A stretch of 41,198 nt of DNA from a virus (Duplodnaviria > Caudoviricetes): positions 1-41,198 of the IMG/VR virus record IMGVR_UViG_3300044723_002720; one strand, 5' to 3'. Shown here piece after piece: positions 3,728-41,198 of the stretch (position 1 is the stretch's first letter; each line of letters opens with the position of its first letter). The notes beneath the pieces are model-generated. The model had not been told where the DNA came from and did no database searches. It saw only the letters and a program-made list of their open reading frames with translations. Position numbers and translations under genes: made by a program.

Positions 3728-3770
3728 AGGATTGATGGAGTGTCTTCAAAGACACTCCTAATCCTTTTTA
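3728..3770 (+). terminator. Intrinsic terminator after the MCP, built around one copy of the 18-bp palindrome (3739-3756)
   Basis: AGGATT-GAT-GGAGTGTCTT-CA-AAGACACTCC-T-AATCCT followed by TTTT. Confidence 0.7.
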
Positions 3771-14334: not shown

Positions 14335-16197
14335 ATGGCGAATACATTTTATCAGTACGGAAAGAGGGATGCTATACAGTATACCGATTGGTCTAAGATA
14401 AGTGAGAACTTCTCCACCATGATTAGTGAGGAACTAACAAGGAGGGAGGATAAGAAGGCAGAGATACAAGAGGCTACGAATGAGGCGATGAAGTTCATTA
14501 ACGACAATCCTGTTGGTGCTTATAGCCTTGCCAATGATTTTAGTGTGGCACACGCAAACAACGCACAGGAGTATCTTTTGATGCTAGATAAGAAGCTAAA
14601 GACAGGTGCATTGAATCCAAAGGACTTTGTGATGATGAGAGAAAATCTCAAGACAGGTACGGAAGGTATCTATAAGGTTGCCACTGCATATCAAAAAAGG
14701 TTCGAGGAAGTTGAAAAAGATTTGCTTTCGGGAGACCCACAGCTATCCAACTTAACATACGCAAGGATGATAGCGTTAGAGGGATTGGGCAGGCTAGAGA
14801 ATACCGATGCCTTAATTGATGTGGCTTCGGGTAGGGTAAACCTATCTAAGTACGATGTGGTTGATGGCGTAAAGAATTACACCGAAGGATATACCACGAA
14901 TGAAGCGATGGCTTTCATGCAGACAGACATCAAAAGATTTAAGGTTAGAGACAATGTAAAAAAAGCTGTAGATAGTTTAGGTACATTAAAGGAAGCATAT
15001 TTTCAAGAAGCTGAAAGGTATGGAGGTTTCAATATCTTAAAAGAAAAAGTTAATATGCGAGATGACTCCGAACTCAAAGGAGTAAAAGAAGGCTATCAGA
15101 AGTGGCGTGAAGACACTATCAATAGCTTTATGAACGATATAAACCAAGCATCTATTCTTGTTGACTTTTTAGAAGGAGAAGGCTACGAAGCAGTAACAAA
15201 CAAGAGTGACTTTGACAATGACAAAACAGGCAAGCTAATATATATAGCACCCAATGGGGAGACAGAATTTCAAGAGGGGCAAAAAGAGAGAGCAAGAGAA
15301 GCCTTTACTACTCAACTTGATAATGCTATTGACCAAGAATATACAGAGAAGGGTGCAGGATATAAGCAATATCCGACTTCTAGGGGTACAGGTGGTAGAG
15401 GTACAAAATATAATGCAAGGCAATCGGCAAACTATATGTCATATTTGAGGGGTGGAAATGAGCAGCAGATTGCAGCAGCGAGAACCTACTTCAAGAATCT
15501 TATGAATCAAAATAAGAAGAAAGACGAGCCTAGAGTTTTAGATATAATTAGAACTGATGAAGGAGTTACTGTCTTATACGAGGGTAATCGTAGGGAAGAG
15601 TTGCCATTTGTAACAGGTGGCGTAGAGTTAACAATGAATGATTGGGTTGGTAGTAGTTCTCCGTTATTGACAGGAGAGACTAATGTGCTACAAGCATTAG
15701 AGGAAGGATTCATGTTTGATGTTGGAGATGAAATATCTACATTTGATAGAAGATTTGAAACAACACAACCTCAGACACCACGAGAAAAAGTAAGCACATA
15801 TATATCTAATGAATTTGGAAATGTTCGTACAGGAAACAAGCAGGAATTAGGATTGGATTTAAGAAGAATCTTAGGAGATTTAGGCTTTGATGTATCTTAC
15901 AGAGGATTCAATAACACTGTTGATATAAGTTTGGGTGGGTTTAAAAGAACAATAAATCTTGCAAATGATATACAGGCTCAGTTAGATGACTTAGCTGTTT
16001 CATTAGACAGAGCAATCAAGAGTGAACTAATGGCTGAAAGAGGACAGAAAGAAAGACCATTTACAAATAGATTCGCATCGTTTGCTTCAAACCTTTCGGG
16101 TGATACAGAAGAAGAAGAACCAATAGAAGATACAGAAGAAGAAGAAGAACCAATAGAAGATACAGATACAGAAGATATAAGTACAGAAGGATATTAA
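14335..16197 (+). CDS. Putative internal virion (ejection) protein
   Basis: 620 aa, synteny, acidic repetitive C-terminus. Confidence 0.5.
   Translation: MANTFYQYGKRDAIQYTDWSKISENFSTMISEELTRREDKKAEIQEATNEAMKFINDNPVGAYSLANDFSVAHANNAQEYLLMLDKKLKTGALNPKDFVMMRENLKTGTEGIYKVATAYQKRFEEVEKDLLSGDPQLSNLTYARMIALEGLGRLENTDALIDVASGRVNLSKYDVVDGVKNYTEGYTTNEAMAFMQTDIKRFKVRDNVKKAVDSLGTLKEAYFQEAERYGGFNILKEKVNMRDDSELKGVKEGYQKWREDTINSFMNDINQASILVDFLEGEGYEAVTNKSDFDNDKTGKLIYIAPNGETEFQEGQKERAREAFTTQLDNAIDQEYTEKGAGYKQYPTSRGTGGRGTKYNARQSANYMSYLRGGNEQQIAAARTYFKNLMNQNKKKDEPRVLDIIRTDEGVTVLYEGNRREELPFVTGGVELTMNDWVGSSSPLLTGETNVLQALEEGFMFDVGDEISTFDRRFETTQPQTPREKVSTYISNEFGNVRTGNKQELGLDLRRILGDLGFDVSYRGFNNTVDISLGGFKRTINLANDIQAQLDDLAVSLDRAIKSELMAERGQKERPFTNRFASFASNLSGDTEEEEPIEDTEEEEEPIEDTDTEDISTEGY
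16102..16176 (+). repeat. Coding tandem repeat (DTEEEE(E)PIE x2 plus DT repeats)
   Basis: gatacagaagaagaagaa(gaa)ccaatagaa occurs twice, followed by gataca repeats. Confidence 0.85.
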
Positions 16198-16210
16198 TAA
16201 AATATTATAA

Positions 16211-19200
16211 ATGAATCCACAAGCAATAAATGATGCGTTTAGATTATTTGCATCAAGGGGTTATAAGGGAGATGAGCAAGAGTTTATTTCATTAATATCT
16301 TCAAATCCACAGGCATTTGATGATGCGTATAGATTGTTTGCATCAAAAGGTTATCAAGGTGGAGAGGATGGATTTAGCAATCTAATGGGGATTGGTAAAA
16401 AAAAAGACGAAGAATTACCTTCCACTACTCCCGAAGAGGATGTGGATTTATCTACAAAGGAAGAGAAAGAAGAATTTTTATCGGGTGCATTATCGGAGGA
16501 TGAAATACTTGTAGCTGATATAGAACTTAAAGACGAGCCTAGCGTATCTGAGGTATTGCAGCAAGAGGCAGATGAGAGAACAAGAAGGAAGGAGTTGCAG
16601 GAAAAGATACAGCCTGCATTGGCAGAAAGACAGAAGGAGGAATTTGAAGAGAAATTTCTATCTGATGTTGAGAAGATGTATGAAAGAGAGGAGTTAAGCA
16701 GAGATACACAATTCATAAAAGATACAGAGCAAGACTTCGCTCAATACTACGGTATGGATGGAGATGCTGCTGTCCGTTCACTTCAAGAACAATTCGGCAA
16801 GTATGGTATTACATTCGAGAAAGAAGGTAGGACTTATGGTGGTTCTATCAAAGCTAAGTCATTTGATGGAGAAGAGTATCTAATACCTTTAAATCAATAT
16901 TTAAAAGACATAGAGAGAGGGAAAGAGATTTCACAGGAGTTCAAGTCTTTTATAGAAAGAACTGCAAGAAAGCCAAAGACAGAAATATCAAAGATTGAAG
17001 AGGAGGGTGTTAAGTTTTATGGGGATAGAGGCATAGACTACTTGACATACAGAGATATGCAGGATAGATATAATGATAACATTAGCCTAATCAAGTTCCT
17101 TGAGAAAGCACCATTCGATGAGCCTGCCGAAGTAACTACAGGAGAGTTACCATATAAGGATATGTATGTAGATGGTGTCCTTAGAACGGATTATAGAGAC
17201 CTTATTAACAAAGCAAAGGATGATAATAAAAAGATAAGGGATTATCTATATAACAAAGATGTATATGACACTAGAGTTGATTTTGATTTAAAGCTACAAG
17301 AGAACGCAGAGAAGGTGGCACAGAAAGCTGCTGAATATAATGGCAACTATAAAGGAATGATGAATCAGTTGAACCAAGCAGCACAAGAATTGTTTGGTGT
17401 CGACATAGATAAACTAAAAGATATAGATGTTAAGGATGACCTCCTAATGAAAAGGAAGGATTATCTTTTGCATTACTACAACGAAGCAAAGGAGCAGAAG
17501 AAGTTGGCAGCAGAAACATATGCAATAGCTACATCATATATTGACGAGAAGTATGACAAGCAGTTGAGTGGAGAATTAGTAGAAGGTATGAAGGCGTTTA
17601 CAAATGCTGTTAGTGCAGGACATAGTAGAGGTCAGGCAGCAGAGGTTATATTGTCTATTGCTATGGGATTAACTGATATATCTGATGATGATTCTTCGAT
17701 GGAAGCTGCAAGAAAAATAATGGAACACCTTGACGATGCCGACACAGGTAAGTTTAGTGTTGGCGATAGAGCATACCATAATGCACAAAGTAATTGGGAA
17801 GTTTTAAGAGCATTAAGGAATAGACCTTTGGAATTAATAGGTGCTTTCGTAGGTCAGTCTTTTGCACAAATGTTACCCATTGGTTCTAAGTTAGTTCCCA
17901 CTGCTGTAGCAGCAGGTGCAGCGTATGGTGCATCAGGATTTAGTCCTGTGTCCGTGTTAGGTGGTGCAGCATTAGGATTAAACACAGGTATGGCAGCTAC
18001 CAATGTAGCTATTGAATACACAAATGCTGTCCTTGATGCGATGACCAATCAAGGATTTGATGTATCAGACCCACAGCAGGTGCAAGAAGCATTACAAAGC
18101 GAGGATGTTTGGAGTGAGGGTAGAGATATTGGATTAAAAAGAGGACTTACTATTGGTGCAGTAGACTTCTTGGGTGGTAAGTTTGCAGGTAAAATGATAC
18201 CTACAAGTAAGCTGGCGTCTTCGGGTACAAAGTTTGCAGCACAAGTTGTAGAAAGGATTGCTATTGACCCTGCATTGGAGATGTTAGGGGAGACTTTAGC
18301 ACAAGCAGCAGCAGGTCAAGAGTTAAATTTTGGAGAGATTCTTGCAGAAGGGTTAGGTGCTATTGGTTCTAATGCAGCTATGGGTGGGTTGAATCAGATG
18401 GTCAGCAACCAAAAGAATACAATAACAAAGATTGCCAACGACCTCTCTGATTTAGATACATTTATGGATGACAACATCCTAGATAGACGAGTTCTTAGTT
18501 GGACAGATAGGCAAGAGAAGATGGGAAGGATTGATTCTGATAAGGCACAGCAGATTAGAAACAATATATCCACAAGGAATGAGGCGAGAGAGATAATGAA
18601 TGTAGGCCAAGAAAATAAGCAGAAGCCAAGTAAGAACCCCGAAGCAGAGAAGAGACTTGCTAAGTTGATAAACGCAAAGAAAGAACTAACATCTACTGAG
18701 GCGACACAGGAAGCGTTCTCCGAGCAGATTTCTGCAATAGATAAAGAGATTAAGGAGACAGCGAGAACAGGCGATGTCGTGGCTGTAGAGCAGCAGGCAG
18801 ACCTTTCTGCATTAGAAAGAAGAATACAAGGAGTAGAGAGTGTCTTCGAAGACACTCTAAAAGTTGCTGCACTAACGGAAGAAGAAAAGTCTACTGAGGT
18901 AGTTCCAATAAAAACTAATGTTGAGCAAATCGAGGAGGTGTCTCCAACGAAACAATATTCTTTTGAATTTGAGGAAGGTCAAGTTCCACCTGAACTTCAA
19001 GACTTAGAAGCCGAATCAGAAACAACCACCACTGAGGGTAAAGTTACTCTCACATTCAGTGGGCAGCAGTTAATAGATGCAGAGTTGGCTACACAAGAAG
19101 AGACTCAAGAAGAGGTAATTGATACAGAAATAATTGAGATAGAAGATGCAGCACAAGAAGTAATAGTAAACTACGAAGAGAAAGCAAGGAAAGAACTTCA

Positions 19201-23307: not shown

Positions 23308-23325
23308 AGTGTCTTCGAAGACACT
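23308..23325. repeat. 18-bp palindrome copy (centre CG) at the convergence of the two transcription arms
   Basis: Begins on the base right after the TAA of the last + strand gene. Confidence 0.95.
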
Positions 23326-25415: not shown

Positions 25416-26674
25416 TAGAATAAACTGCTTTGTTTTTCCTTTTGGTTTAACACATCCCTCTTAAAATGTGCAAGGGTATAATCTTTCTTCTTAGACACTG
25501 CCTTATAAATATCATACTCTATTCCATCCTTTGCAAATATCCAATAGACTTTGTTCTTCAACCTATCAGATGTTACCATTCTGTCTTTGCTTTGCCAATA
25601 AGATGTAGCCGAGAAATCTATGTTGTAATATACCAAAAAATCTGCTTCCTTTAAACTGACTCCCTCCCTACCACTAACGATTTGTAATGCTATATTCTTA
25701 TCAGTGTCTTCGAAGACACTCAATTCTGTGGTTAAGCTATCTCCGAACACATCCTTCAATGCGTTCAGTTCCTCCTTGAACTTGTAGAATATTCCAATCT
25801 TCTTACCTAAGAAGTGGGAGTATATAAACTCTGCCTTACTATAATCAAACACCATAGAGTTTCCACCTTCAAACTTTACAGTTCCACTATACATTTGGTG
25901 TAGCTTTTGCATCAGCTTTACAGGTGTATCTGCTAATACCACTTCCTCTTTGCCCTCTATAACTCTATGCTTGGTCAATTTGTTTACCATTCTATAGGTC
26001 GTTGGCTGCATCTCCACCTCTAATATATTCTCCTCTGTTACTACCTTAAATCCTGCCTGCTTCTGTGTAAACGATATAGTGTGTGGCTTCATCTCCTTAA
26101 GGATTTTATCCATACCCCTGCTATAATCATTGACCATCATCGAGTTAATCTTTCGCTGCCTTACATCCACATAATCTTTGGCAAACTTATAGAAGTTGGC
26201 ATAGTTTCTAAATGGATTATCAGCTATGCCATATACTTGATGATACATCTGTGAGTATGATTCGGGAGTCGGAGTTCCACTCAAGAATATAACCTTTGAT
26301 TTGCACTTAGCTACCATGTCTTTCACTTGCTTGGCTCTCTTGTTTGGTTTTGGAAATGCCCCCAATGTGTGTGCTTCATCTGCTATGATTACATCCCACT
26401 TGATGTCAGGTAGCTTGTGCATACTCTCGTAGTTTATAATCCAAATACTGAAGTTATTTGGACACATTAGGTCATAGTCCTTGCTGATTGAATCCATAGC
26501 TTTCTTCTTAGTTAGAAACAGCACATGGCTTACTCCTATCTCTTCGCATATTCCCATAGCAGTTAGTGTCTTGCCTGTTCGAACTTCCATAGCTAGGTAT
26601 AGAAAGCTATTGGTGGATAGCTTCTTTGAGCCTTCGTTTATTATTTCTTTTTGGTATGGTCGAAACTCCATCAT
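25415..26674 (-). CDS. Superfamily 2 (SNF2-like) helicase
   Basis: RPYQ Q-motif, TGKT Walker A, DEAH box, SGTP motif III, Q..DR motif VI. Confidence 0.9.
   Translation of the reverse strand: MMEFRPYQKEIINEGSKKLSTNSFLYLAMEVRTGKTLTAMGICEEIGVSHVLFLTKKKAMDSISKDYDLMCPNNFSIWIINYESMHKLPDIKWDVIIADEAHTLGAFPKPNKRAKQVKDMVAKCKSKVIFLSGTPTPESYSQMYHQVYGIADNPFRNYANFYKFAKDYVDVRQRKINSMMVNDYSRGMDKILKEMKPHTISFTQKQAGFKVVTEENILEVEMQPTTYRMVNKLTKHRVIEGKEEVVLADTPVKLMQKLHQMYSGTVKFEGGNSMVFDYSKAEFIYSHFLGKKIGIFYKFKEELNALKDVFGDSLTTELSVFEDTDKNIALQIVSGREGVSLKEADFLVYYNIDFSATSYWQSKDRMVTSDRLKNKVYWIFAKDGIEYDIYKAVSKKKDYTLAHFKRDVLNQKEKQSSLF
25703..25720. repeat. 18-bp palindrome copy (centre CG), inside helicase CDS
   Basis: Exact core, read as SVFEDT in the helicase frame. 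Confidence 0.95.
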
Positions 26675-31391: not shown

Positions 31392-31409
31392 AGTGTCTTC
31401 AAAGACACT
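31392..31409. repeat. 18-bp palindrome copy (centre CA)
   Basis: GAGAGTGTCTTCAAAGACACTCTC, 17 nt upstream of the exonuclease ATG. Confidence 0.95.
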
Positions 31410-32029: not shown

Positions 32030-32429
32030 AATTCCTTTCTTTAAATTGTTTAGTTTGATGATGAAATAATTTAATCAATCTTTCTCGGTAGTTCTTAAAG
32101 GTCTGTATCTTTCGGAAGTTGTTTCTGTTGTTAACTTCGTATCTGATTTTATCATTGACACCCTCTATTCTTTTGAGGATGTTGGACATCATCAGCCAAT
32201 ACACTCCTTGTTTTAATCCGTAGGTTTTAAATACATCAATCTCTTCTTCCTTGAGTTTGACATAGTAATCCCCACCCCTTGCTGTATTGTAGAACTCTAT
32301 CTGCCCACTCAACTTATCTCGGATAATCTTACATCCAAATAAAAGTCGTGCTTCGTAGAGCCTTGTGTCAAGTGGAACAGACAATCTATCTTCGCCTGCC
32401 TGCTCCCATAATTGTATCTCGGTAAACAT
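31986..32429 (-). CDS. Hypothetical protein
   Basis: 147 aa, TAATG-coupled to the upstream gene. Confidence 0.7.
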   Translation of the reverse strand: MFTEIQLWEQAGEDRLSVPLDTRLYEARLLFGCKIIRDKLSGQIEFYNTARGGDYYVKLKEEEIDVFKTYGLKQGVYWLMMSNILKRIEGVNDKIRYEVNNRNNFRKIQTFKNYRERLIKLFHHQTKQFKERNYVKDEINLGDTIQD

Positions 32430-32725
32430 TATTGTAGTGATTCAAACATGACTTCATAGTTAACATCATCTACAAACTTCTTCTCCATCCTTCTTATGGC
32501 ATTGATGATTGCAGTATGAGATACCTTGTGTCCATACTCAAGCATAAACTTTTGAATGGTAGCTACCCTCATCGGTCTGTTTTTGCACAACTTCCAAAGC
32601 ATATGTCTTGCTGCCGTAACATCTCTATCTAAATTCTTTGATAGAATGAGGCTCTTAGTAATGCCCATCTTTTCTGACACTGCACTTAGGTATAAATCAA
32701 ATGCTTCTTTGTTTTGTCTTCTCAT
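32429..32725 (-). CDS. DnaA domain IV (Bac_DnaA_C)-like HTH DNA-binding protein
   Basis: ILSK...R.V..ARHM...L and HTAII.AIRR match the DnaA C-terminal signature. Confidence 0.7.
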   Translation of the reverse strand: MRRQNKEAFDLYLSAVSEKMGITKSLILSKNLDRDVTAARHMLWKLCKNRPMRVATIQKFMLEYGHKVSHTAIINAIRRMEKKFVDDVNYEVMFESLQ

Positions 32726-33027: not shown

Positions 33028-33049
33028 TGTTTAAAGTTTTAAAACGCAG

Positions 33050-33067
33050 AGTGTCTTCGAAGACACC
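33050..33067. repeat. Palindrome copy (centre CG, one terminal change)
   Basis: GCAGAGTGTCTTCGAAGACACCCTGC. The change gives a G.U pair on the - strand. Confidence 0.95.
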
Positions 33068-33096
33068 CTGCTAAAAAATACCCCAATCTCAAATTC

Positions 33097-33306
33097 TTAT
33101 ACCTCGATATGTCGTAGGTTGTTAATCTCCTCCATAATCTCTTCGAGGTGTTCGTTAAAAAGTTCCCTGCCTACACCAAGCAACTCTCCGTTGTTTGTTG
33201 TTTCCATTATGGCTTTCAATTTCTTTAGTGCATCCACCCCTTGATGGGCAGTCCTAAGATAGCTTGCTGTTGCATCAATCAAGATGCTCATTAGTTTGTT
33301 ATCCAT
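33097..33306 (-). CDS. Hypothetical protein
   Basis: 69 aa ORF tiling the operon. Confidence 0.65.
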   Translation of the reverse strand: MDNKLMSILIDATASYLRTAHQGVDALKKLKAIMETTNNGELLGVGRELFNEHLEEIMEEINNLRHIEV

Positions 33307-33316
33307 GTCGTTAAGT

Positions 33317-33610
33317 TTAAAATGTTGTGATTATATTTCCTTCTATTATTTCCATTGTGCTTTGTACTATGTACATGGAAAAAGATTTATCCCCAAACTT
33401 ATTCCATAGTCTTTCATCCCTTGTCTTGATAAAGTCTTGAACCAAACTATAACTCATTATGGTTCTTGCTATAGATTGTATTACACCTACAGATTCTTCA
33501 TCGTTATATCGGATTGCCTTTGGGTTGTCATCCCTTGACCTTTCCCAAGTCGTTGCGACATGGATTAGTATTGCGTTAAAAATTTGTGCTTCAACTGATT
33601 CAATTCTCAT
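33317..33610 (-). CDS. Hypothetical protein
   Basis: 97 aa, ATGA overlap with the upstream gene. Confidence 0.7.
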   Translation of the reverse strand: MRIESVEAQIFNAILIHVATTWERSRDDNPKAIRYNDEESVGVIQSIARTIMSYSLVQDFIKTRDERLWNKFGDKSFSMYIVQSTMEIIEGNIITTF

Positions 33611-33855
33611 TGTCTTCTGTTTTGAAAGTGAATAGATAGTTCCACATCTGTCCTATTGTTGATGATTACATATTCATAGAACCAATCCTTACGGAATACC
33701 TGCATGATTATCTCATCATCTTTCTTGCTAACGAATGTCTTGTAACCCCACGACCTTGTGATGGCATACATCTCTTCGCTTCTTGTTTCAAACTCATAGA
33801 GCCTGCATAATTCCAAGAACAGATGCTTGTTTGTTATGTTCTCGTGTGTTGTCAT
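33607..33855 (-). CDS. Hypothetical protein
   Basis: Start probably 33855 (ATGA overlap with the GH73 stop), 33873 is the alternative. Confidence 0.6.
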   Translation of the reverse strand: MTTHENITNKHLFLELCRLYEFETRSEEMYAITRSWGYKTFVSKKDDEIIMQVFRKDWFYEYVIINNRTDVELSIHFQNRRQ

Positions 33856-34502
33856 AGACTTCTCTTTATCCAATTAGAAAATTCGTTTAGCTTGTACTCC
33901 TCTATTATCCTCAATAGATTCTTCGTGTAGTTTATATCTGTGGCATAGCCACGCTGCTGTAACTCTTTCGCAAACTCGTAGCAATCCAACTCTCGGAAGT
34001 CCAAGTCTGCGTACCTGCTATTCGCCAAGAACCATTCACTCCTATCGACAAAGCATAGTTCTGCACTTTCGTATGTTCTGAACTTACTCTTTCGTGAAAC
34101 TCTTTTACCCTTGACATATTCATCCGAGTAGTAGTCAGCACCCTGCATACCCTTTCGGTATTCCTTGATGCCGAAGTAGTTGTGGTATTCTTTCGCCAGC
34201 TTAGACCTGCCCCAACCACTCTCAAGAATGGCTTGGGCAGTCATAACTTCCATTGGTAATCCCCACTTCAACTCCTCTGCCAATGCAGGAACTAACACCT
34301 TGTTTAGAAAGTCTGCTTGGTATGGTTTCAAATCCAAGTTACCTTGCAGCCAATCCTCTGTACCCTCACGCAACATTTCTTCCAAGTCCGTATCGTATGT
34401 ACGCAACTCTCTGAATGTATCGTATGGCATTTCTAAATCCCTTACACACGATGATAATAATAGTGTGATTATGATTGATACAATTAATCTTTTATTTCTC
34501 AT
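33852..34502 (-). CDS. GH73 glucosaminidase/muramidase (FlgJ-like) with lipoprotein signal peptide
   Basis: AQAILESGWG.S.LA...NYFGIK and GYATD..Y motifs, N-terminus MRNKRLIVSIIITLLLSS-C19. Confidence 0.9.
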   Translation of the reverse strand: MRNKRLIVSIIITLLLSSCVRDLEMPYDTFRELRTYDTDLEEMLREGTEDWLQGNLDLKPYQADFLNKVLVPALAEELKWGLPMEVMTAQAILESGWGRSKLAKEYHNYFGIKEYRKGMQGADYYSDEYVKGKRVSRKSKFRTYESAELCFVDRSEWFLANSRYADLDFRELDCYEFAKELQQRGYATDINYTKNLLRIIEEYKLNEFSNWIKRSL

Positions 34503-34505
34503 AAT

Positions 34506-34751
34506 TTAATGTTGAATTGAAAATCTAATTTCTCCATCTTTAATACATTTGTATCCACCATAGACAGAACCTTCTGTTTCCTTCTCTATCTCTTGGATTA
34601 AATGCATTGTGTCTATCCCTTGTTCTCTTGGTGCGGGATAATAGAAAGCAGTTCTCCCATTGTCAGCAGTTTTCTGTGCCATTTCAAGGATGCTTTGAAT
34701 GTGCTTTTTGAAGTTATTTTCAAGAGCAACTTTGTTTACTACTATTTTCAT
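34506..34751 (-). CDS. Hypothetical protein
   Basis: 81 aa ORF tiling the operon. Confidence 0.7.
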   Translation of the reverse strand: MKIVVNKVALENNFKKHIQSILEMAQKTADNGRTAFYYPAPREQGIDTMHLIQEIEKETEGSVYGGYKCIKDGEIRFSIQH

Positions 34752-34900
34752 AATTCTAATCCTTGTTCGTTATAAATGGTATAGTCCTTGTCGGGGTTTT
34801 CCCCTCGAAGTCTATACATTTCTTGTATAGCATCGGCTAACTTGTCAATAACCAAGACCGATTCAAACTTTCCGTTTGTTGTTTCTATTACCTCAAACAT
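34748..34900 (-). CDS. Small protein (50 aa), not in the ORF track
   Basis: MFEVIETTNGKFESVLVIDKLADAIQEMYRLRGENPDKDYTIYNEQGLEL, overlaps both neighbours (ATGA at its 3' end). Confidence 0.7.
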   Translation of the reverse strand: MFEVIETTNGKFESVLVIDKLADAIQEMYRLRGENPDKDYTIYNEQGLEL

Positions 34901-35087
34901 TGTGCATTTCGTTTTCGTTAATGAATGATTGTACTGCTTGGCGAATGGTCATACCTTTGTTACAGATTTTTTCCCAAGCATATAGATATACCTCTGTGTA
35001 TCTAACGATTACTCTGTCTGTCTTATCCCTTAGACTTGGGAATCTATCCCTAATCTCATTACATATTTCCTTTTGTAAGTTTGTCAT
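34893..35087 (-). CDS. Hypothetical protein
   Basis: Start reassigned to the ATG at 35087, downstream of the degenerate palindrome. Confidence 0.65.
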   Translation of the reverse strand: MTNLQKEICNEIRDRFPSLRDKTDRVIVRYTEVYLYAWEKICNKGMTIRQAVQSFINENEMHNV

Positions 35088-35102
35088 TGTTATTTTATTT
35101 GT

Positions 35103-35120
35103 GGTGTCGTACAAGACACC
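35103..35120. repeat. Degenerate palindrome copy
   Basis: GGTGTCGTACAAGACACC keeps the GTGTC/GACAC arms and the tttgt / ttgtt flanks. Confidence 0.7.
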
Positions 35121-35147
35121 TTGTTATTTAAAAGTTTTAAAGGAGAG

Positions 35148-35165
35148 AGTGTCTTCAAAGACACT
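35148..35165. repeat. 18-bp palindrome copy (centre CA)
   Basis: GAGAGAGTGTCTTCAAAGACACTCCCTC. Confidence 0.95.
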
Positions 35166-35184
35166 CCCTCTGAAATCTGCATAA

Positions 35185-36360
35185 TTAAAACGGAAAATCC
35201 GTATCTGCGTGGAACACATCGCCACATGGAGTGCAGTATGCCAACCCCTCGTACTCGTCAACAAGACATTGTGTACTGCAATTAGGACAGATGTTATCGT
35301 TAGCAAATGTTCTGCTATTGATAGTCCAACTCGGTAATTTTTTCTGTAAGTCAGACAACTTCTGTGTCTTTGTCTTTGTCTTGGTCTGTGTGGGAGTGAA
35401 TGAATAGTCCACCCCATAGTCATAGCTATCCCAATCTGCTGACCACTCGTAGTCATCCCAAGTATTCATATCGTAGCTATTCTGCTTGGTACTGCGATTC
35501 CATATCGTACCCTCATATGATTGTACGACATTCTTACGCTGATGCTCGGCAAGTCCGAAGAAGTCCTCGTTGATGAAGTACACCCACGCATCTACAACCT
35601 CGCCACTATCCAATACAATCTGCGTTACCTTGCGTGTATAGAAGTTGGGATGCCCCTCCAACCTATCCAAGTCAATCATCTCCCAATGGTCGCAGTCATA
35701 CACCTCGACATCTACATTGTGTCCAACACCTTTGGTATCGTACATATACGGAAGACCCGATACACGCAAGGGATATTTACTTTTGGTCTTACCGTTGCCG
35801 ACAAACTTTGCTGACTTGATTAGTCCGTGATTGCCATACCCCTGCTTGAGTGTGCCATAGACAGCCACCCTTTTCATAAGCACATTGTCTTTGGAATACC
35901 AAACGCCATCGTGTCTGTACCAATCATCCTTGTTGTATATCTGATAGGATTTGTAATGCGTGTTGACCGTAACAAATCGGCAGTCAAATTGTGCCAAGTG
36001 TTTCTTCCACTTTGCCCTACGCATATTGCATAGGTGATTAGCCAAGTCTTGTGTGTCGGTCATGTCCTTGTTACCATACCCCATAATTGTACCATTCTGC
36101 ATGAGGTACTCGTGTGGATTGTTGCCACAAGGGAACGGATGGATGTTGTCCTTACACACCTTGCCGATTGTCGCATACCTAAAGTGTGCTATGAATGGTC
36201 TGTTGGTCTGTAATAGTTTCCAATCCCTTGATTCGTGGTATGTAATCTCGTAGCTATCAAGCCACACCACACCAAGTCCATGTGGATTTATGATAGACGA
36301 CCTGCGTAGTATGTTGGTGTCTATTTTGTTGTCGTTATTCTTTACAATAATTACGCACAT
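35185..36360 (-). CDS. Class II glutamine amidotransferase fused to gamma-glutamylcyclotransferase (AIG2-like) and a C-terminal Zn ribbon
   Basis: N-terminal M-C, NPHG.G, HFRYAT, HPF, NG, TD motifs, then VAVYGTLK.G and LD.LEG, then CPNC...CTPC. Confidence 0.88.
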   Translation of the reverse strand: MCVIIVKNNDNKIDTNILRRSSIINPHGLGVVWLDSYEITYHESRDWKLLQTNRPFIAHFRYATIGKVCKDNIHPFPCGNNPHEYLMQNGTIMGYGNKDMTDTQDLANHLCNMRRAKWKKHLAQFDCRFVTVNTHYKSYQIYNKDDWYRHDGVWYSKDNVLMKRVAVYGTLKQGYGNHGLIKSAKFVGNGKTKSKYPLRVSGLPYMYDTKGVGHNVDVEVYDCDHWEMIDLDRLEGHPNFYTRKVTQIVLDSGEVVDAWVYFINEDFFGLAEHQRKNVVQSYEGTIWNRSTKQNSYDMNTWDDYEWSADWDSYDYGVDYSFTPTQTKTKTKTQKLSDLQKKLPSWTINSRTFANDNICPNCSTQCLVDEYEGLAYCTPCGDVFHADTDFPF

Positions 36361-36377
36361 AATTTCTTATATTTATG

Positions 36378-36395
36378 AGTGTCTTTGAAGACACT
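36378..36395. repeat. 18-bp palindrome copy (centre TG)
   Basis: Between amidoligase and GATase, 17 nt before the ATG. Confidence 0.95.
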
Positions 36396-36398
36396 CGG

Positions 36399-37331
36399 TT
36401 AATAATTGTCATATATAAAATCTCCTGCCAATGTACCGTAGTCAACTGCATTGTTGTCGATAACTTCTTGGAACGAAGTGGCAACACGATATATAAACTC
36501 TATACGATTTGCTAATAACTCGTCTGTTTGGCAGTCAGAACGATACATTCTATTAAGAATAGGCAGCATCTTGTCAAACATTTTCTTGAATGTCATACGA
36601 TTCTTACCACTTTCGTGGATGAGTGTGTACAATAACTCATACCTGCGTATCATCTGCTCAACAGAATCTACTCGGTTAATAAGTCTGAACTCTATAACAT
36701 TACCCTTTACCAGCACAGGTTGATACCTTGAACTTATACTGCCGTAGTATCTACTGCCCTCTCGTGCTTCGTCATAGGTACGCAGTGTGATGTTTTGTCG
36801 GCAGTAAGAATTTTTTAATCGCCCTCTCCATAGTGCGTATATGATTCCCATAAATGGTCTTACCCTTTTCAGTATGTCGTTACCATACATATCCCTAATA
36901 CCTATCGTTATGTGTCCACCACAATCTTGATTGGCAGGAGAATACTGACTATCTATAATCCTTTCGGCATCATAGAACAAGGAGAACACCTTGCTTCGCC
37001 ACTCGCTTGGAGGAAGTAATGGTAGGATGTTTGTGATTGCTTCCACACCACAAGAGCCATCCCTTTCGAACCCACAGAATAATGGGTAACGCTTGACTGC
37101 TCGTGGTGCAAACTCATTCTTTTCAATCTCGAATCCTATGGTATACCTACATACATCGGCATCCATAATGAGTCCTCTATCTCTTTTTGGTAAGGACTTG
37201 ATGTCATCTTCTAATCCACTTGCCATATATCTTGGACTTGGACTATTGTGATAACCTACTACTCGGTTTCTGTGAGGAACGGCATCATTTGTATACACGA
37301 TTCCCTTTGGTTTTAATAAATGCAGATTCAT
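36399..37331 (-). CDS. Putative amidoligase (COOH-NH2 ligase, Amidoligase_2-like)
   Basis: TIGFEIE, DGS..VE, CGGHI and IEFR motifs, adjacent to GATase-GGCT. Start reassigned to ATG 37331. Confidence 0.8.
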   Translation of the reverse strand: MNLHLLKPKGIVYTNDAVPHRNRVVGYHNSPSPRYMASGLEDDIKSLPKRDRGLIMDADVCRYTIGFEIEKNEFAPRAVKRYPLFCGFERDGSCGVEAITNILPLLPPSEWRSKVFSLFYDAERIIDSQYSPANQDCGGHITIGIRDMYGNDILKRVRPFMGIIYALWRGRLKNSYCRQNITLRTYDEAREGSRYYGSISSRYQPVLVKGNVIEFRLINRVDSVEQMIRRYELLYTLIHESGKNRMTFKKMFDKMLPILNRMYRSDCQTDELLANRIEFIYRVATSFQEVIDNNAVDYGTLAGDFIYDNY

Positions 37332-37350
37332 AATAACTGATTGCTTTGTG

Positions 37351-37368
37351 AGTGTCTTTGAAGACACT
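37351..37368. repeat. 18-bp palindrome copy (centre TG)
   Basis: 19 nt before the ATG at 37331. Confidence 0.95.
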
Positions 37369-37379
37369 CGATGATTAAA

Positions 37380-37610
37380 TTATAATTCAATTTCTTTTGT
37401 AGTAACAATGTCTGTTACTCCCCAAGCTACGCTGACAGATACCTTGTACCCACAATCTCGCAGCTTTTTAATAATGGCGTGTCTGTTGTGCCAAACATCT
37501 TTATCCCAACCACTATAATCGCAAGTGCATAATTTGGAATAGCCGTTCTTTGTTGCATAGTCCATTTCTTCTTTGGCTATGCGTGTCAACTTCTGTCTTA
37601 AGTCTTCCAT
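37380..37610 (-). CDS. Hypothetical early protein
   Basis: 76 aa with an A-rich leader. Confidence 0.7.
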   Translation of the reverse strand: MEDLRQKLTRIAKEEMDYATKNGYSKLCTCDYSGWDKDVWHNRHAIIKKLRDCGYKVSVSVAWGVTDIVTTKEIEL

Positions 37611-37629
37611 CCTTTTTTGTTTTAGTTAA

Positions 37630-37854
37630 TTAATTTATTGACTTATTGTTATTACTTATAGTATCTAGGTAAATAATTTCATCGTTAATTGTTAGGTATT
37701 CTCTACCATTCATCTCTGAATCTCCCCACACTTCCATATAGCCAATGCAAAAATCATTGACATACAATTCTACCATTGAGCCTTTTTTAGTGTAAGATAA
37801 TTCGTCATATGTATTAAAGAATATCCTATCCTGTTCTGTTAGTATCCCTATCAT
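37630..37854 (-). CDS. Hypothetical early protein
   Basis: 74 aa, downstream of the promoter at 37902-37933. Confidence 0.65.
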   Translation of the reverse strand: MIGILTEQDRIFFNTYDELSYTKKGSMVELYVNDFCIGYMEVWGDSEMNGREYLTINDEIIYLDTISNNNKSIN

Positions 37855-37901
37855 ATCTTTGTATAGATTTATAAATAAATTAATTAGTTACATTTACCTT
37901 A

Positions 37902-37933
37902 CAAATATAAGACATTTATATGACAATGTCAAA
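37902..37933 (-). promoter_or_regulatory. Consensus Bacteroidota sigma-A promoter
   Basis: On the - strand TTTG, 20 nt, TATATTTG. The spacer holds the inverted repeat GACATT-N8-AATGTC. Confidence 0.75.
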
Positions 37934-37964
37934 TATTATTTTTTCTAAAGTGTTCTGAGAACAG

Positions 37965-37982
37965 AGTGTCTTTGAAGACACT
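37965..37982. repeat. 18-bp palindrome copy (centre TG)
   Basis: ACAG-AGTGTCTTTGAAGACACT-AT-CTGT, overlapping the TAG of the upstream gene. Confidence 0.95.
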
Positions 37983-38148
37983 ATCTGTGGCCATACTTTT
38001 CGTGGAACTCTGCCTGCCTGACTAATCTTTTAGCCGACTTAACTATGGCATCCCACCACTCTTGCTCGGTCTTGTTCGCAGGCTTGTTCGCCCAAAAAGA
38101 ATCGTTCTTTTGTAGCCGTTTTGCTAATTCGATTACTGCTTTCTCCAT
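37981..38148 (-). CDS. Hypothetical early protein (55 aa)
   Basis: ATG at 38148, 19 nt from the palindrome. The track's GTG start lies inside the repeat. Confidence 0.7.
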   Translation of the reverse strand: MEKAVIELAKRLQKNDSFWANKPANKTEQEWWDAIVKSAKRLVRQAEFHEKYGHR

Positions 38149-38167
38149 TTTAATTTTGATTTGTGAG

Positions 38168-38185
38168 AGTGTCTTCAAAGACACT
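38168..38185. repeat. 18-bp palindrome copy (centre CA)
   Basis: tttgtGAGAGTGTCTTCAAAGACACTCCCttgtt. Confidence 0.95.
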
Positions 38186-38207
38186 CCCTTGTTAATTGTA
38201 TTTAGTT

Positions 38208-38576
38208 CTACTCTTCAAGGAAGCATTCCTTTCCATTCGGAGTGATGTGCATTTTTACTCGACCCATCGGATGGTCTATATAAATTACTGCCTGCTTTAC
38301 ATTTCTGTATGGTATCAATTTATACTCATCTTTCCTGCCTTGTAGTCCCATCACAAAATCTATTCCAAGATCCATTATACTGAACCAATTCGTTCCGTCT
38401 TTAGCATCCTTATCGTCTACATCTAGGGTAGTTATGTATATATATCTTATAACTCGGTTGTCTTTTCGCCATATGTGAAAATATCTGTCGATACTTTCTT
38501 CTCCAATCATTAGCTTTGCAGGTTTCTGCACGATTGGAATTACTGAATCTACGATTCCATTAGAAAACTTTCTCAT
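38208..38576 (-). CDS. Hypothetical early protein
   Basis: 122 aa filling the space between two repeats. Confidence 0.75.
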   Translation of the reverse strand: MRKFSNGIVDSVIPIVQKPAKLMIGEESIDRYFHIWRKDNRVIRYIYITTLDVDDKDAKDGTNWFSIMDLGIDFVMGLQGRKDEYKLIPYRNVKQAVIYIDHPMGRVKMHITPNGKECFLEE

Positions 38577-38594
38577 CTTGTTTAGCTTTGTGAG

Positions 38595-38612
38595 AGTGTC
38601 TTCAAAGACACT
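38595..38612. repeat. 18-bp palindrome copy (centre CA)
   Basis: Same extended flanks as the 38168 copy, 18 nt before the ATG. Confidence 0.95.
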
Positions 38613-38627
38613 CCCTTGTTTGAAAAT

Positions 38628-38996
38628 TTATTTGTTGAACCCACGCAATATTTCGTCGGTAAATCTCTCTCGATTAGTGTTATAATTCCACTTCATAGAA
38701 GCAATCACATTTACTATTTCGTCTATTGAATCTTGGTCAGAGTACAAATTACTTTCGACTGCTAAGATTCCATTGAACCATACCTTTATGATAAAGTGAT
38801 TGTCTATAGTGCCATCCATATGTAGCGTGGTTTCTATGTTGGTTTCTATTTTAGCAGACTCCAACTGATGTTCCAATACCTTTGGGTTATCAAATTTTAT
38901 CTTGAGTTTCCCACTATGGATATACCCATCTATGCTTTTGGGATTGTTGGTAGCCAATTCCTTGACTAAATCCCCAATGTGTTTAAATAAATACAT
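38628..38996 (-). CDS. Hypothetical early protein (122 aa)
   Basis: Start reassigned to ATG 38996, fills one repeat-bounded unit. Confidence 0.75.
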   Translation of the reverse strand: MYLFKHIGDLVKELATNNPKSIDGYIHSGKLKIKFDNPKVLEHQLESAKIETNIETTLHMDGTIDNHFIIKVWFNGILAVESNLYSDQDSIDEIVNVIASMKWNYNTNRERFTDEILRGFNK

Positions 38997-39015
38997 TTTG
39001 TTTAGCTTTGTGAAG

Positions 39016-39033
39016 AGTGTCTTTGAAGACACT
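39016..39033. repeat. 18-bp palindrome copy (centre TG)
   Basis: tttgtGAAGAGTGTCTTTGAAGACACTCTCCgatt, 19 nt before the ATG. Confidence 0.95.
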
Positions 39034-39063
39034 CTCCGATTAGAAAATTTATTTGTTCATAGT

Positions 39064-39375
39064 TTAGTATTCAAAACCTTTTACTTCGGTTTCATTACCA
39101 TCCCAATAGTACCCATTCAGATACCACACAAAATTCTTTTGGTATATGTGTACATTGGGCAGTCCATTAAGCCTTTCCTTTGTGGTGTTTGTTGCCCAAC
39201 CACAATTACTTATGTATAGCTTTCTACCTTGTTCGGTATGCTTTATCTTTGCTATGACATTTCCATGTAGGCATAGCCAAGTTTCGTGCGTGTCTGCAAT
39301 CACTTGCATATTGCTTTTCGCAAACGGCTCATTGTTCAGAAAAGCCTTGACACTTTCGTGAGTTATCTTTCTCAT
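39064..39375 (-). CDS. Phage hypothetical early protein
   Basis: MRKIT...LHGN.IA...GW.TNTTKERLNGL pattern, which I recall from other phage early proteins of unknown function. Confidence 0.75.
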   Translation of the reverse strand: MRKITHESVKAFLNNEPFAKSNMQVIADTHETWLCLHGNVIAKIKHTEQGRKLYISNCGWATNTTKERLNGLPNVHIYQKNFVWYLNGYYWDGNETEVKGFEY

Positions 39376-39394
39376 TTAAAGATTCTTTGTGAAG

Positions 39395-39412
39395 AGTGTC
39401 TTCGAAGACACT
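39395..39412. repeat. 18-bp palindrome copy (centre CG)
   Basis: Same extended flanks as the 39016 copy, 19 nt before the ATG. Confidence 0.95.
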
Positions 39413-39426
39413 CTCCGATTGAAAAA

Positions 39427-39681
39427 TTATTTACTTTCGTTATACTTATCTACCCATTCTTGTGGTGTGTAAATGACACACTCCTTTGTTGAGTTTTCGG
39501 ACTCTATCCTAACTTGCATATACTCCACAGTTATTCGTGACCATGTGCGTACACCATTCGGAAAATCCATTCGTGTTACTCCCTTGCCAAGTTTTACTCC
39601 CTTTTCATTCGGATACTTTGCAAATAGTGCTGACAACTCCTTTAATAGTTCAGCTTTGTCAATCTTAATGACATCATTCAT
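39427..39681 (-). CDS. Hypothetical early protein (84 aa)
   Basis: Start reassigned to ATG 39681. Confidence 0.75.
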   Translation of the reverse strand: MNDVIKIDKAELLKELSALFAKYPNEKGVKLGKGVTRMDFPNGVRTWSRITVEYMQVRIESENSTKECVIYTPQEWVDKYNESK

Positions 39682-39700
39682 TTTATTTAGCTTTGTGGAG

Positions 39701-39718
39701 AGTGTCTTCGAAGACACT
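39701..39718. repeat. 18-bp palindrome copy (centre CG)
   Basis: tttgtGGAGAGTGTCTTCGAAGACACTCCCCgatt, 19 nt before the ATG. Confidence 0.95.
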
Positions 39719-39731
39719 CCCCGATTTCAAA

Positions 39732-40025
39732 TCAATAAATACAACCTTTGTTTAGACTTTCGAAATCGAAATTCCACCCACTTTTCAGTAGTTCTGCGAT
39801 TACAAAATTCGGCATCGCAGTTCCCCAATTCTTTGTGATTAAGCTATCTTCGAATTTGAAGAAGCCACTTATACCATAGGTACTGAAGTTATCAAACTCC
39901 CAACGACCATCGCCATCCTTAGAGAATCTTAAAATCAATTCCCCATTGTACCCATTGTATTTAATGGGTTGGCAATGTCTTACTGCTGACGCATTTTGCA
40001 GCAGTGTTACTACATGACATTCCAT
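39732..40025 (-). CDS. Hypothetical early protein (97 aa)
   Basis: ATG at 40025, 19 nt from the palindrome. The longer track ORF reads through two repeats from a TTG. Confidence 0.65.
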   Translation of the reverse strand: MECHVVTLLQNASAVRHCQPIKYNGYNGELILRFSKDGDGRWEFDNFSTYGISGFFKFEDSLITKNWGTAMPNFVIAELLKSGWNFDFESLNKGCIY

Positions 40026-40044
40026 ATCATTTTTTTCAGTGAAG

Positions 40045-40062
40045 AGTGTCTTCGAAGACACT
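40045..40062. repeat. 18-bp palindrome copy (centre CG)
   Basis: Exact core. Confidence 0.95.
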
Positions 40063-40127
40063 CCGTAAATCCAAATTTCTTCTACTACCTTAAGCCCTAT
40101 CCTTTGCAGGAATCGGGCAGGCAGGAG

Positions 40128-40145
40128 AGTGTCTTCAAAGACACT
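40128..40145. repeat. 18-bp palindrome copy (centre CA)
   Basis: Exact core with the CCCTTGTT flank, only 65 nt from the previous copy. Confidence 0.95.
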
Positions 40146-40169
40146 CCCTTGTTTGTAGATAGCCAAAGA

Positions 40170-40811
40170 TTACATTTCGCTAACCATAGCCATTAGTTCG
40201 GTCAAAGAAGCCAAGATGCTTTCTTTGTCGCAGGTAGTTATAATCGTACCATTGTCGATACGGAAGTTTACCCCATTCGTTTTGTCCACAAAGGTATGCG
40301 TAGTCGTACCCTCGCTTTCGCCATCGGCCTCACCGTTGCCTTCCCCTGATTGGTCAGCACTCCCCTTTGGAGGATTAATCGCGTCTTCAATAGACATCCC
40401 CTCTTCAAGGTTTTTTGCGAATTTTAACAATTCTGCAATACTCAAACTTTTCCTTTTGCCGCTCTCGTTTTGAAACTCGATAGCAGCACTTTCGTACTTA
40501 GACCACATTTCTTGTCCTAAGTCGTAGGCCTTAATTGCCTTGTATAACCAAGATTTGTCAAAGCCAAAGGATACTTTAAAATAGCCATCCTTTCTTAAGT
40601 CTAACCCCATAGACATTCGCAATTCTTTACAGCTCGGCGAATCGAAGTAAGCCGAAGCATTTTTAGCTAATTCACCTAACTCAAGTGAAGCATAAAATTT
40701 GCGTTTGTCATTGTTAACAAGTTTAGCCTTAGCTCTTTTGATTGCTTCGGTATTAATACTTGTTTTAACTCGGTCATCGTTAAAAAATCTTTTGATAATA
40801 GTATTCATCAT
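40170..40811 (-). CDS. First early gene, possible HTH DNA-binding protein (DUF3102-like pattern)
   Basis: LELGELA...FGFDKSWLYKAIKAY...SIAELLK resembles DUF3102-type helical proteins. An acidic Gly/Ser linker precedes a small C-terminal domain. Confidence 0.5.
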   Translation of the reverse strand: MMNTIIKRFFNDDRVKTSINTEAIKRAKAKLVNNDKRKFYASLELGELAKNASAYFDSPSCKELRMSMGLDLRKDGYFKVSFGFDKSWLYKAIKAYDLGQEMWSKYESAAIEFQNESGKRKSLSIAELLKFAKNLEEGMSIEDAINPPKGSADQSGEGNGEADGESEGTTTHTFVDKTNGVNFRIDNGTIITTCDKESILASLTELMAMVSEM

Positions 40812-40830
40812 TTTTGATTTGTGAAGACCA

Positions 40831-40848
40831 AGTGTCTTCGAAGACACT
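40831..40848. repeat. 18-bp palindrome copy (centre CG)
   Basis: GAAGA-CCA-core-CAA-TCTCC, 19 nt before the ATG at 40811. Confidence 0.95.
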
Positions 40849-41198
40849 CAATCTCCGATTAGACATTATAAATATTTCAATTTGTATGTGGGAATCTTTA
40901 TTCCCTTCCGACAATTCAAATATCATACAAAGTTTTAACTTAAATGTAACTTTTTCTGAAAACGACACATTTTATCTGTTAATTGACTTATTCCTTCGAT
41001 TTTTGGTAAATAGCACTTGGTTCGAAATCTACCTATTCACTAGGTTTTATTAGGCAGTTAAAATTGTGGTGTATGGGTTAAGCAAAGTCTAAAGGTCTAA
41101 GATCATTTAATTTGCTTTCTTTATATAATTCTTTTCGCTTATATGTGTAAGGATGGCAGATAAACATATAAGAAGTATTGCTATGTGTAATAGTAGTG

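Follow-up and report, generated by a model that had tools for sequence, protein, structure and literature searches.

In the temperate, integrating Streptomyces phage phiC31, inverted repeats bound by the repressor lie in many intergenic regions, and one of them is tied to autoregulation. Cluster A phages such as L5 and Bxb1 have tens of stoperators, mostly off promoters, that are bound by one phage protein, according to their description (PMC6550527). For the 17-bp inverted repeat of Cluster O mycobacteriophages the binder is unknown, and its authors judged a transcriptional role unlikely (PMC4351075). ParB holds its specificity residues in the recognition helix and the helix that follows it (PMC7383237). 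In this study, we analyzed a 16-bp palindrome, GTGTCTT-YR-AAGACAC (7+2+7), that occurs in 18 exact copies and 1 degenerate copy in the virus record IMGVR_UViG_3300044723_002720, against a chance expectation of 4e-5 exact copies. The window is the entire IMG/VR record of 41,198 bp, which is 68% complete. The palindrome is very probably a double-stranded DNA (dsDNA) site bound by the 213-amino-acid product of the first early gene of the same phage (40170-40811, - strand), which we call the candidate binder. The reading we prefer, at a probability of about 0.52, is a dispersed dsDNA operator system that acts by repression or road-block of transcription, in which some copies also serve as hairpins in terminators or mRNA.

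The + strand of the window encodes virion genes (portal, major capsid, tail, and three ejection-type proteins), and the - strand encodes replication genes and small early genes. The capsid protein is 69% identical to that of MW202828 (uncultured), 53% to that of Maribacter phage Panino, 47% to that of Elemovirus, and 42% to that of Cellulophaga phi38:1. Because of these relatives, of promoter boxes in relatives that follow the Bacteroidota consensus, and of two Bacteroidota bins with such contigs, this uncultured phage probably infects Bacteroidota. The group is common in public metagenomes, where we estimate ~8000 stretches with a relative of the capsid protein and ~560 with the exact motif. 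For comparison we took whole records of relatives; 45 assembled records were compared. Our literature search, with subscription papers and supplements outside its scope, found no description of this repeat or of the 213-amino-acid protein, and PMC7077304 has no text match for 'elemo' or 'palindrom'.

Co-variation of the palindrome with a candidate binder

A de novo search found wholly different 7+2+7 palindromes in other lineages, which suggests that the reader is encoded by the phage. One protein cluster fits the pattern of sites, that of the candidate binder, whose gene is flanked by sites on both sides; we followed its presence and absence, its co-variation with the site, and structure and homodimer models of its product. 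The gene is encoded in 37 of the 45 records, and all 37 have a repeated palindrome, degenerate in two (G052 and G060). Both gene and sites are lacking in G026, G028, elemoE, Panino, and phi38:1, and the records G033, G034, and G025 are fragments that do not cover the gene's place. We also collected 163 loci without using the motif for choice, 160 via the alignment of a neighbouring gene and 3 via single neighbouring proteins. The recognition helix region is seen in 107 of them, and 106 of these 107 have at least three sites, 96 under the strict pattern and 10 under a relaxed pattern that was brought in later. Locus searches that started from one protein alone, either that of the window or P0013, found nothing.

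The palindrome and the predicted recognition helix change together across relatives, which is why we regard the former as a likely dsDNA site for a phage helix-turn-helix (HTH) protein. In 130 sources we found 15 half-site consensus types, two of which are one-base variants of the common type, and at least 14 palindrome types go with distinct recognition helices when the degenerate form of G052 and G060 is counted. Among 61 non-redundant sources, the helix pattern K-S-x-x-Y-K and the half-site GTGTCTT or a one-base variant occur together in 38 of 38 cases, and with Asp or Glu at residue 91, position 3 of the half-site is C in 5 of 5. Residue 91 is Lys or Arg with GTGT types and Asp or Glu with GTCC, GTCT, and ATCC types.

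The cleanest ancestry control is the pair of genomes G029 and G049, which share 87% nucleotide identity over 7.7 kb. The candidate binder is only 43% identical between them; its neighbours range from 85 to 97% (helicase and adjacent gene 95% each, primase 97%), and at 9 of 9 sites another palindrome has taken the place of the first, with the flanks kept. Across 33 genomes, pairs with different motifs have a candidate binder identity of at most 0.44, and five other proteins reach 0.64 to 0.97 in such pairs. The contrast between same-motif and different-motif pairs within the candidate binder peaks at residues 85 to 94. Mutual information peaks at K91, L128, K94, D85, and A126, although common ancestry confounds these peaks and columns outside the helix are nearly as high. 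The two regions that score highest are the same two that hold specificity in ParB (PMC7383237). In the capsid tree, a quick one in which many nodes are open and three rows truncated, motif types are scattered, and the site-less G028 is sister to the site-bearing G008.

The palindrome is also retained inside coding sequence. At one codon position in the helicase gene (copy at 25704-25719 in the window) lies the palindrome specific to the lineage, and the residues follow: the peptide reads SVFEDT in the window and SLFQQT, SPFERT, or SVFKET in other lineages, and DEFNST where the site is missing. The Val codon of this site is fixed in 24 genomes; for 99 other degenerate codons the mean is 0.47 and the maximum 0.78. 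In the terminase gene, 21 of 43 records have the site with five invariant codons and 0 of 230 other four- or six-fold codons reach 95%, a comparison that is partly circular since genomes were picked partly for a matching site; in G049 this place is taken by that genome's own, different palindrome. Sites are present in 23 of 41 open reading frames (ORFs) of at least 1800 amino acids, in all three frames and in 19 unalignable contexts.

The candidate binder has no Pfam or PHROG family and no sequence match in PDB; its relatives form 376 clusters at 50% identity, and Pfam searches with 29 members gave no hit, ParB_N included. AlphaFold2 models (predicted local distance difference test [pLDDT] scores of 89.5 and 95.6) place N-terminal dimerisation helices before an HTH (helix 74-82, G83, helix 86-97), an acidic linker, and a small C-terminal domain of three strands and one helix. 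Residues 1-67 are modelled as helices (pLDDT 86-98), with no ParB_N CTPase domain. The best full-domain match is Spo0J (Z score 5.5, root-mean-square deviation [rmsd] 4.1, 101 residues aligned), followed by KorB on its operator (Z 5.3, rmsd 3.7, 99 aligned) and the DNA-binding domains of Noc and SopB (Z 4.6 each); recurring fold matches span Z 4.1 to 5.5, and there are four unnamed viral structural relatives. The homodimer model scored 0.76, against 0.01 for the best of three controls, and 20 of 30 solved pairs reached the mark applied, as did 1 of 23 single chains. Homodimer runs agreed in at least 80% of contacts with pLDDT of at least 81, and residues 89-94 are not in the listed interface of this model, which consists of protein chains only. 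The modelling supports a homodimer and predicts that the candidate binder is a dimeric HTH protein weakly like ParB and KorB. A likeness of the C-terminal domain to the dimer domains of P1 ParB and SopB found no support, as this domain had no named Atlas match. DUF3102 (PF11300) phage proteins are a lead only, with a likeness at the level of features (Atlas match 0.93, based on 158 of 256 features; 42% of that cluster has the family), a weak Foldseek row (E 1.3), and no Pfam match in the 29 members.

Other explanations of who reads the palindrome were rejected. G026 and G028 have the DnaA-C HTH gene (32429-32725) but no sites, and G029 and G049 do not differ in its putative recognition segment. 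The MW202828 'repressor' cluster is found in all five site-less genomes. For promoters of an N4-like virion RNA polymerase, the 2317-amino-acid protein has a single D-x-D-x-D match, near its C terminus. A host motif was rejected as well, with ~350 stretches estimated in 596 Gb of genome contigs against ~555 by chance; multi-copy contigs in Bacteroidota bins (G025:C198 and G064:C22) are phage contigs, and the two contigs of metagenome-assembled genomes (MAGs) that we examined have phage-type genes only. The same 16-bp palindrome occurs on four contigs (L136, L140, L197, and L229) of one Planctomycetota bin (Pirellulaceae MAG JADHUC01), and three further bins have two palindrome-bearing contigs each; the Pirellulaceae copies could be a host repeat or chance. 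As for the range of the system, G021 has three exact sites only, all around the HTH gene, and the proteins P0007-P0013 have yet another recognition helix, whose cognate site was not found (no locus). Both may possibly be early or decaying states of the system.

A probable duplex core with RNA stems at some copies

The first-pass annotation had read the element as probably a single-stranded hairpin whose outer stems co-vary and whose imperfections are G.U wobbles on the coding strand. Our results bear this out as an RNA fold at some intergenic copies, but not as a requirement of the element as a whole. The sites of different lineages have too little common sequence for a covariance model, so we used pair counts and flank-swap controls in its place. 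The pair counts covered 408 sites in 36 genomes, with 218 unique intergenic flank types. On the coding strand, 97 of the 218 extend by at least three pairs, against 43 on the other strand and 5.2% of random windows. The strand bias sought in a larger set is there: internal flank mismatches (a first mismatch with two more pairs beyond) on the mRNA strand of intergenic types are G.U 44, A.C 1, and other 8. The bias tracks the direction of transcription and not one genome strand, and it holds for the oppositely transcribed copy behind the capsid gene; unique flanks are related by descent, so that the p-value overstates their independence, yet the bias is still clear. These counts support selection on a coding-strand RNA fold at a subset of intergenic copies. 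The intergenic centre is also biased on the coding strand (87 CA to 24 TG), and Rfam gave 0 matches at the gathering score. In the early regions of G054 and G055, a further flank motif, CGAAAC...GTCTTA, recurs at several copies and pairs on either side of the core in a different register, which suggests a second repeated RNA element.

Within the window, Watson-Crick flank pairing exceeds the flank-swap control (38 versus 31.4 ± 2.5, p = 0.0065, 13 unique flanks). Two of the complementary flanks singled out earlier are as described: GCAG/CTGC at 33046 (core 33051-33066), where a pair that is A.C on the + strand and G.U on the - strand adjoins the core, and GGAG/CTCC at 3737 (core 3740-3755), with three flank pairs. 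ACAG/CTGT at 37961 (core 37966-37981, overlapping a stop region) is present but pairs only with a 2-nt bulge. The copy at 40832-40847, which ends 20 nt before the candidate binder ATG, does have four G.U pairs on the - strand in its 8-pair flank stem, and its RNA folds at -19.4 kcal/mol on that strand against -11.3 on the +. The statement that deviations are G.U on the mRNA strand drew on a selective list. Among the 15 intergenic - strand copies, the first mismatch is G.U in 10, which represent only 6 distinct flank types, A.C in 3 (31393, 36379, and 37352), and neither in 2; most of the positions given for the deviations mark the copy itself, with the wobble 2 to 4 nt further out. Over the first five flank pairs of these copies, G.U and A.C stand at 10:7 (p = 0.63), and when the folding energies of both strands are compared, the coding strand is better in 10 of the 15.

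The core itself probably works as a duplex site. A strand-specific stem at every functional copy, as expected of a boxB, Cas6, or RNase III type of site, is contradicted by the 79 of 218 intergenic and 51 of 97 in-gene flank types that have no extension; only 7 of the 97 in-gene types reach three or more pairs, which is the chance level. The 65 sites of unassignable strand show no bias. In MW202828, which carries a variant core 14 times, the flanks of intergenic copies show no more pairing than the flank-swap control, and neither do the flanks in G029. Core mismatches on the coding strand are G.U 30, A.C 22, and other 18 (p = 0.33, no strand bias). The centre is YR in 395 of 417 sites, and both CA and TG centres are found on the coding strand, which counts against an RNA loop, because CA and TG are different RNA loops but one dsDNA site. 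Positions 7 and 10 would lie within the 4-nt loop of the RNA fold, yet they change jointly between lineages (T/A in 58, A/T in 2, and G/C in 1 of the 61 non-redundant sources); sites were defined by palindrome matching, so core symmetry is partly built in. The copy behind the major capsid gene (3740-3755) is the apex of a terminator-like hairpin (~3728-3765, T run behind, + strand) and has the make-up of an intrinsic terminator, with a hairpin and then a U tract on the coding strand after the gene. Nearly all of the 45 records have this hairpin with a T-rich tail; its apex is the genome's own palindrome in 30 and an unrelated sequence in 15, so the terminator is independent of the core, which must be kept for another reason.

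The remaining copies of the window are mostly in the early region, where intergenic cores lie at 40129-40144 (directly after the candidate binder stop), 40046-40061, 39702-39717 (flank stem of 5 pairs), 39396-39411, 39017-39032, 38596-38611, and 38169-38184. The core at 37352-37367 is a counter-example with A.C as the first flank mismatch on the mRNA strand, as is that at 36379-36394, which precedes a gene for a glutamine-amidotransferase-like/gamma-glutamyl cyclotransferase fusion. Terminator-like copies with a T-rich tail on the - strand are found at 35149-35164 (6-pair flank stem) and at 33051-33066 (5-pair flank stem); the degenerate copy (35104-35119) has one arm mismatch and a centre that is not YR. 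The core at 31393-31408 lies between the Sak-like annealing gene and the exonuclease gene. Three copies lay outside the discussion of the first-pass annotation: 25704 in the helicase gene and 23309-23324 in the convergent gap between late and early/middle genes, each with an extension of one pair only, and 18840-18855 within the gene for the 2317-amino-acid virion-type protein.

Several neighbouring features were noted along the way. A gene pair at 35185-37367, directly behind the HTH gene and kept in nearly all relatives, encodes a protein of 310 to 400 amino acids without a family match and the fusion protein named above; G028 retains divergent copies of the pair though it lacks the HTH gene and the sites. 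A glucosaminidase gene (PF01832, 33852-34502) stands among the early genes, outside any lysis module. At 35080-35419, contig depth is 2004 and 3658 in runs X2 and X3 with almost none in neighbouring bins, probably from a short repeat common to another organism. The end of a 620-amino-acid gene holds a 30-nt perfect tandem repeat (16107-16166), and the start of the 2317-amino-acid gene holds a 90-nt duplicated unit (16185-16364). A conserved T run and then a G-rich box lie 100 to 250 bp upstream of the first site, ahead of the HTH gene, in many relatives, among them G001, G006, G007, G013, and G016. Several 'linear' contigs, the window included, terminate 200 to 400 bp upstream of the HTH gene, so this region may be a packaging start or genome end.

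Proposed role and rival explanations

If binding is granted, repression is the job that we consider rather likely. In our model, the candidate binder would be made first and accumulate, and its homodimer would bind the duplex 16-bp operator at many points of the genome. Bound protein would repress or road-block transcription, damping early and middle genes, including its own gene, which is bracketed by sites, and late operons would be held back until replication outruns the protein. It would also silence any phage that arrives later with this palindrome, and this would account for the specificity switch among close relatives. Since a palindrome can fold into a stem once it is transcribed, terminators and stabilising hairpins built around it would be favoured where intergenic gaps are compact; the outer stems with G.U pairs are likely RNA hairpins that grew around the operator at some intergenic copies. 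The layout is consistent with this model, as sites lie in the gaps of the early genes and recur at intervals along late operons, and one orthologous site lies 30 to 39 nt downstream of a Bacteroidota-type -7 box (15 of 218 on the coding strand, 3 on the other strand). We also counted for repression that the diversified specificity resembles phage immunity groups (PMC6550527).

Several results weigh against this operator model. The flank G.U bias of 44:1 reflects selection at the RNA level, and a U tract is found in only 35 of the 97 extended intergenic stems. Fold scores are weak, with Z below 6 in a helical protein and ties with unrelated helical chains, and Foldseek found nothing in PDB at E ≤ 0.001 for either model. 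Most whole genomes were recruited via the motif itself, other genes too diverge strongly between G029 and G049, and the mutual-information peaks carry the ancestry problem described above. Most sites are off consensus promoters, none in the window overlaps one, and the site upstream of the binder gene is usually 130 to 230 bp upstream of its promoter box. Integrase (PF00589), resolvase (PF00239), and ParA (PF13614) were each found in 0 of 39 records, with positive controls matched, so a lysogenic state of the kind served by known stoperator repressors is not evident.

The same protein and dsDNA site could instead have a structural job, in which a CTPase-less, ParB/Noc-like self-tag marks, bridges, anchors, or shields the incoming chromosome during DNA entry, condensation, or protection from host or phage nucleases. 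We consider this fairly unlikely, though it fits the spacing of sites as well as repression does; the sites in 32 genomes are graded from the genome end that holds the gene (at about -0.2, 0.7, 1.7, 2.6, 4, 8, 13, 21, 37, 44, and 57 kb), ~1 kb apart at first and 7 to 16 kb later, with a largest gap mostly of 11 to 25 kb in the common type. The independence of sites from gene direction, their presence in 23 of the 41 long ORFs, the two predicted dimer interfaces linked by the acidic linker, and the lack of lysogeny genes in 39 records fit it as well. However, the rare-motif lineages G029, G056, MW202828, and G021 have gaps of 44 to 61 kb and nearly all of their sites in the early region, G026 and G028 can do without gene and sites, in-gene sites may merely occupy tolerant linkers, and a structural tag by itself predicts no specificity switching. 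The hairpin of the first-pass annotation, formed in nascent RNA or extruded DNA and read by some protein or nuclease that acts in processing, antitermination, or translational control, would explain the G.U bias, the 97 extended stems (62 of them without a U tract), the CA bias of the centre, and the sites that often finish 15 to 25 nt before an ATG, and the co-varying protein could still bind it. We consider it quite unlikely, as it leaves unexplained the flank types without extension, the swap controls in MW202828 and G029, the unbiased core, the joint change of loop positions 7 and 10, the ordinary post-capsid hairpins of site-less relatives (15 of 45), and the absence of an Rfam match.

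Copies might also be boundaries of recombination cassettes (attC/PeSL-like) that serve the shuffling of early genes. The window's early genes are each bracketed by copies with common flanks, joints of strain contigs fall at sites (35100 to 38195 via a variant site, and 38592 to 39396, that is, from the 38596 copy to the 39396 copy), and the phage encodes the Sak-like annealing protein and the exonuclease. But no tyrosine or serine recombinase was found in the 39 records, which also counts against the attC-like single-stranded DNA substrate of the first-pass annotation; other joints lie away from sites (33297-33616, 37607-37852, and 39431-40077), and breaks at the sites within the genes for terminase, helicase, and giant virion proteins would do harm. 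It is simpler to see shuffling as a by-product of repeated sequence, and we regard cassettes as very unlikely. Estuary strains differ at 33100-39400 by the precise gain or loss of small early genes, with joints at palindromes or at site-less gene borders.

Returning to the dsDNA site and its phage-encoded reader, we put forward a broader idea only tentatively: a widespread group of aquatic phages that apparently do not integrate may tag the entire chromosome with a private palindrome, read by an early, CTPase-less ParB-like protein, as a self/non-self system of the lytic cycle. Such a protein would silence or exclude later-arriving relatives, or shield and haul in its own DNA. Conflict between phages would then drive the rewriting of all sites in place, even within essential proteins, into at least 14 orthogonal codes.

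Significance and comparison with known systems

This analysis pairs an unnamed protein family with a likely DNA target and provides a natural code book with at least 14 pairs of recognition helix and site, some of them from near-identical phages in which helix and site both differ. It opens to test, without culturing, the joint specificity switch of a repressor and 10 to 19 sites, as well as immunity-like systems in apparently lytic phages and the role of dispersed palindromes such as the Cluster O repeat. The helix/site pairs could also give orthogonal repressors for Bacteroidota genetics.

As in Cluster A, tens of sites mostly off promoters are assigned here to one phage protein, the motif varies by lineage and tracks that protein, and sites cluster near its gene (PMC6550527). 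There, the stoperator is 13 bp, asymmetric, and oriented with transcription, and its phages are temperate and carry integrase or parABS; the site studied here is palindromic (7+2+7), with both centre orientations on the coding strand, the 39 records lack integrase, resolvase, and ParA, and the binder is a predicted dimer of another family than the Cluster A repressor. The Cluster O repeat is alike in its 7-bp arms and variable centre, its more than 30 copies between and inside genes, its absence from the host, deletions between copies, and a proposed dimeric protein as binder, and it differs in its 3-bp spacer and unrelated sequence and host (PMC4351075); in the present case, co-variation across at least 14 specificities points to one candidate binder. 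Intrinsic terminators resemble the post-capsid copy, with its hairpin and U tract, whereas most copies here are not terminators. Integron attC requires IntI and a long imperfect hairpin with R and L boxes, whereas the element here is a 16-bp near-perfect palindrome that is also found within essential genes. In KorB-OB of plasmid RK2 and the ParB/Noc-parS/NBS systems, a palindrome is read by an HTH and the following helix, in which a few residues switch specificity (PMC11790492 and PMC7383237); the phage system is predicted to be alike in this, and its best, though weak, fold matches are to these proteins. Unlike those proteins, the candidate binder lacks a ParB_N CTPase domain and has an N terminus modelled as antiparallel-dimer helices, with no ParA partner found and no sequence homology in Pfam, PHROG, or PDB. 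Site symmetry, lysogeny genes, and the CTPase domain thus set it apart from each known system: it would work like the Cluster A stoperators and KorB-OB and looks like the Cluster O repeat, while departing from defining features of each.

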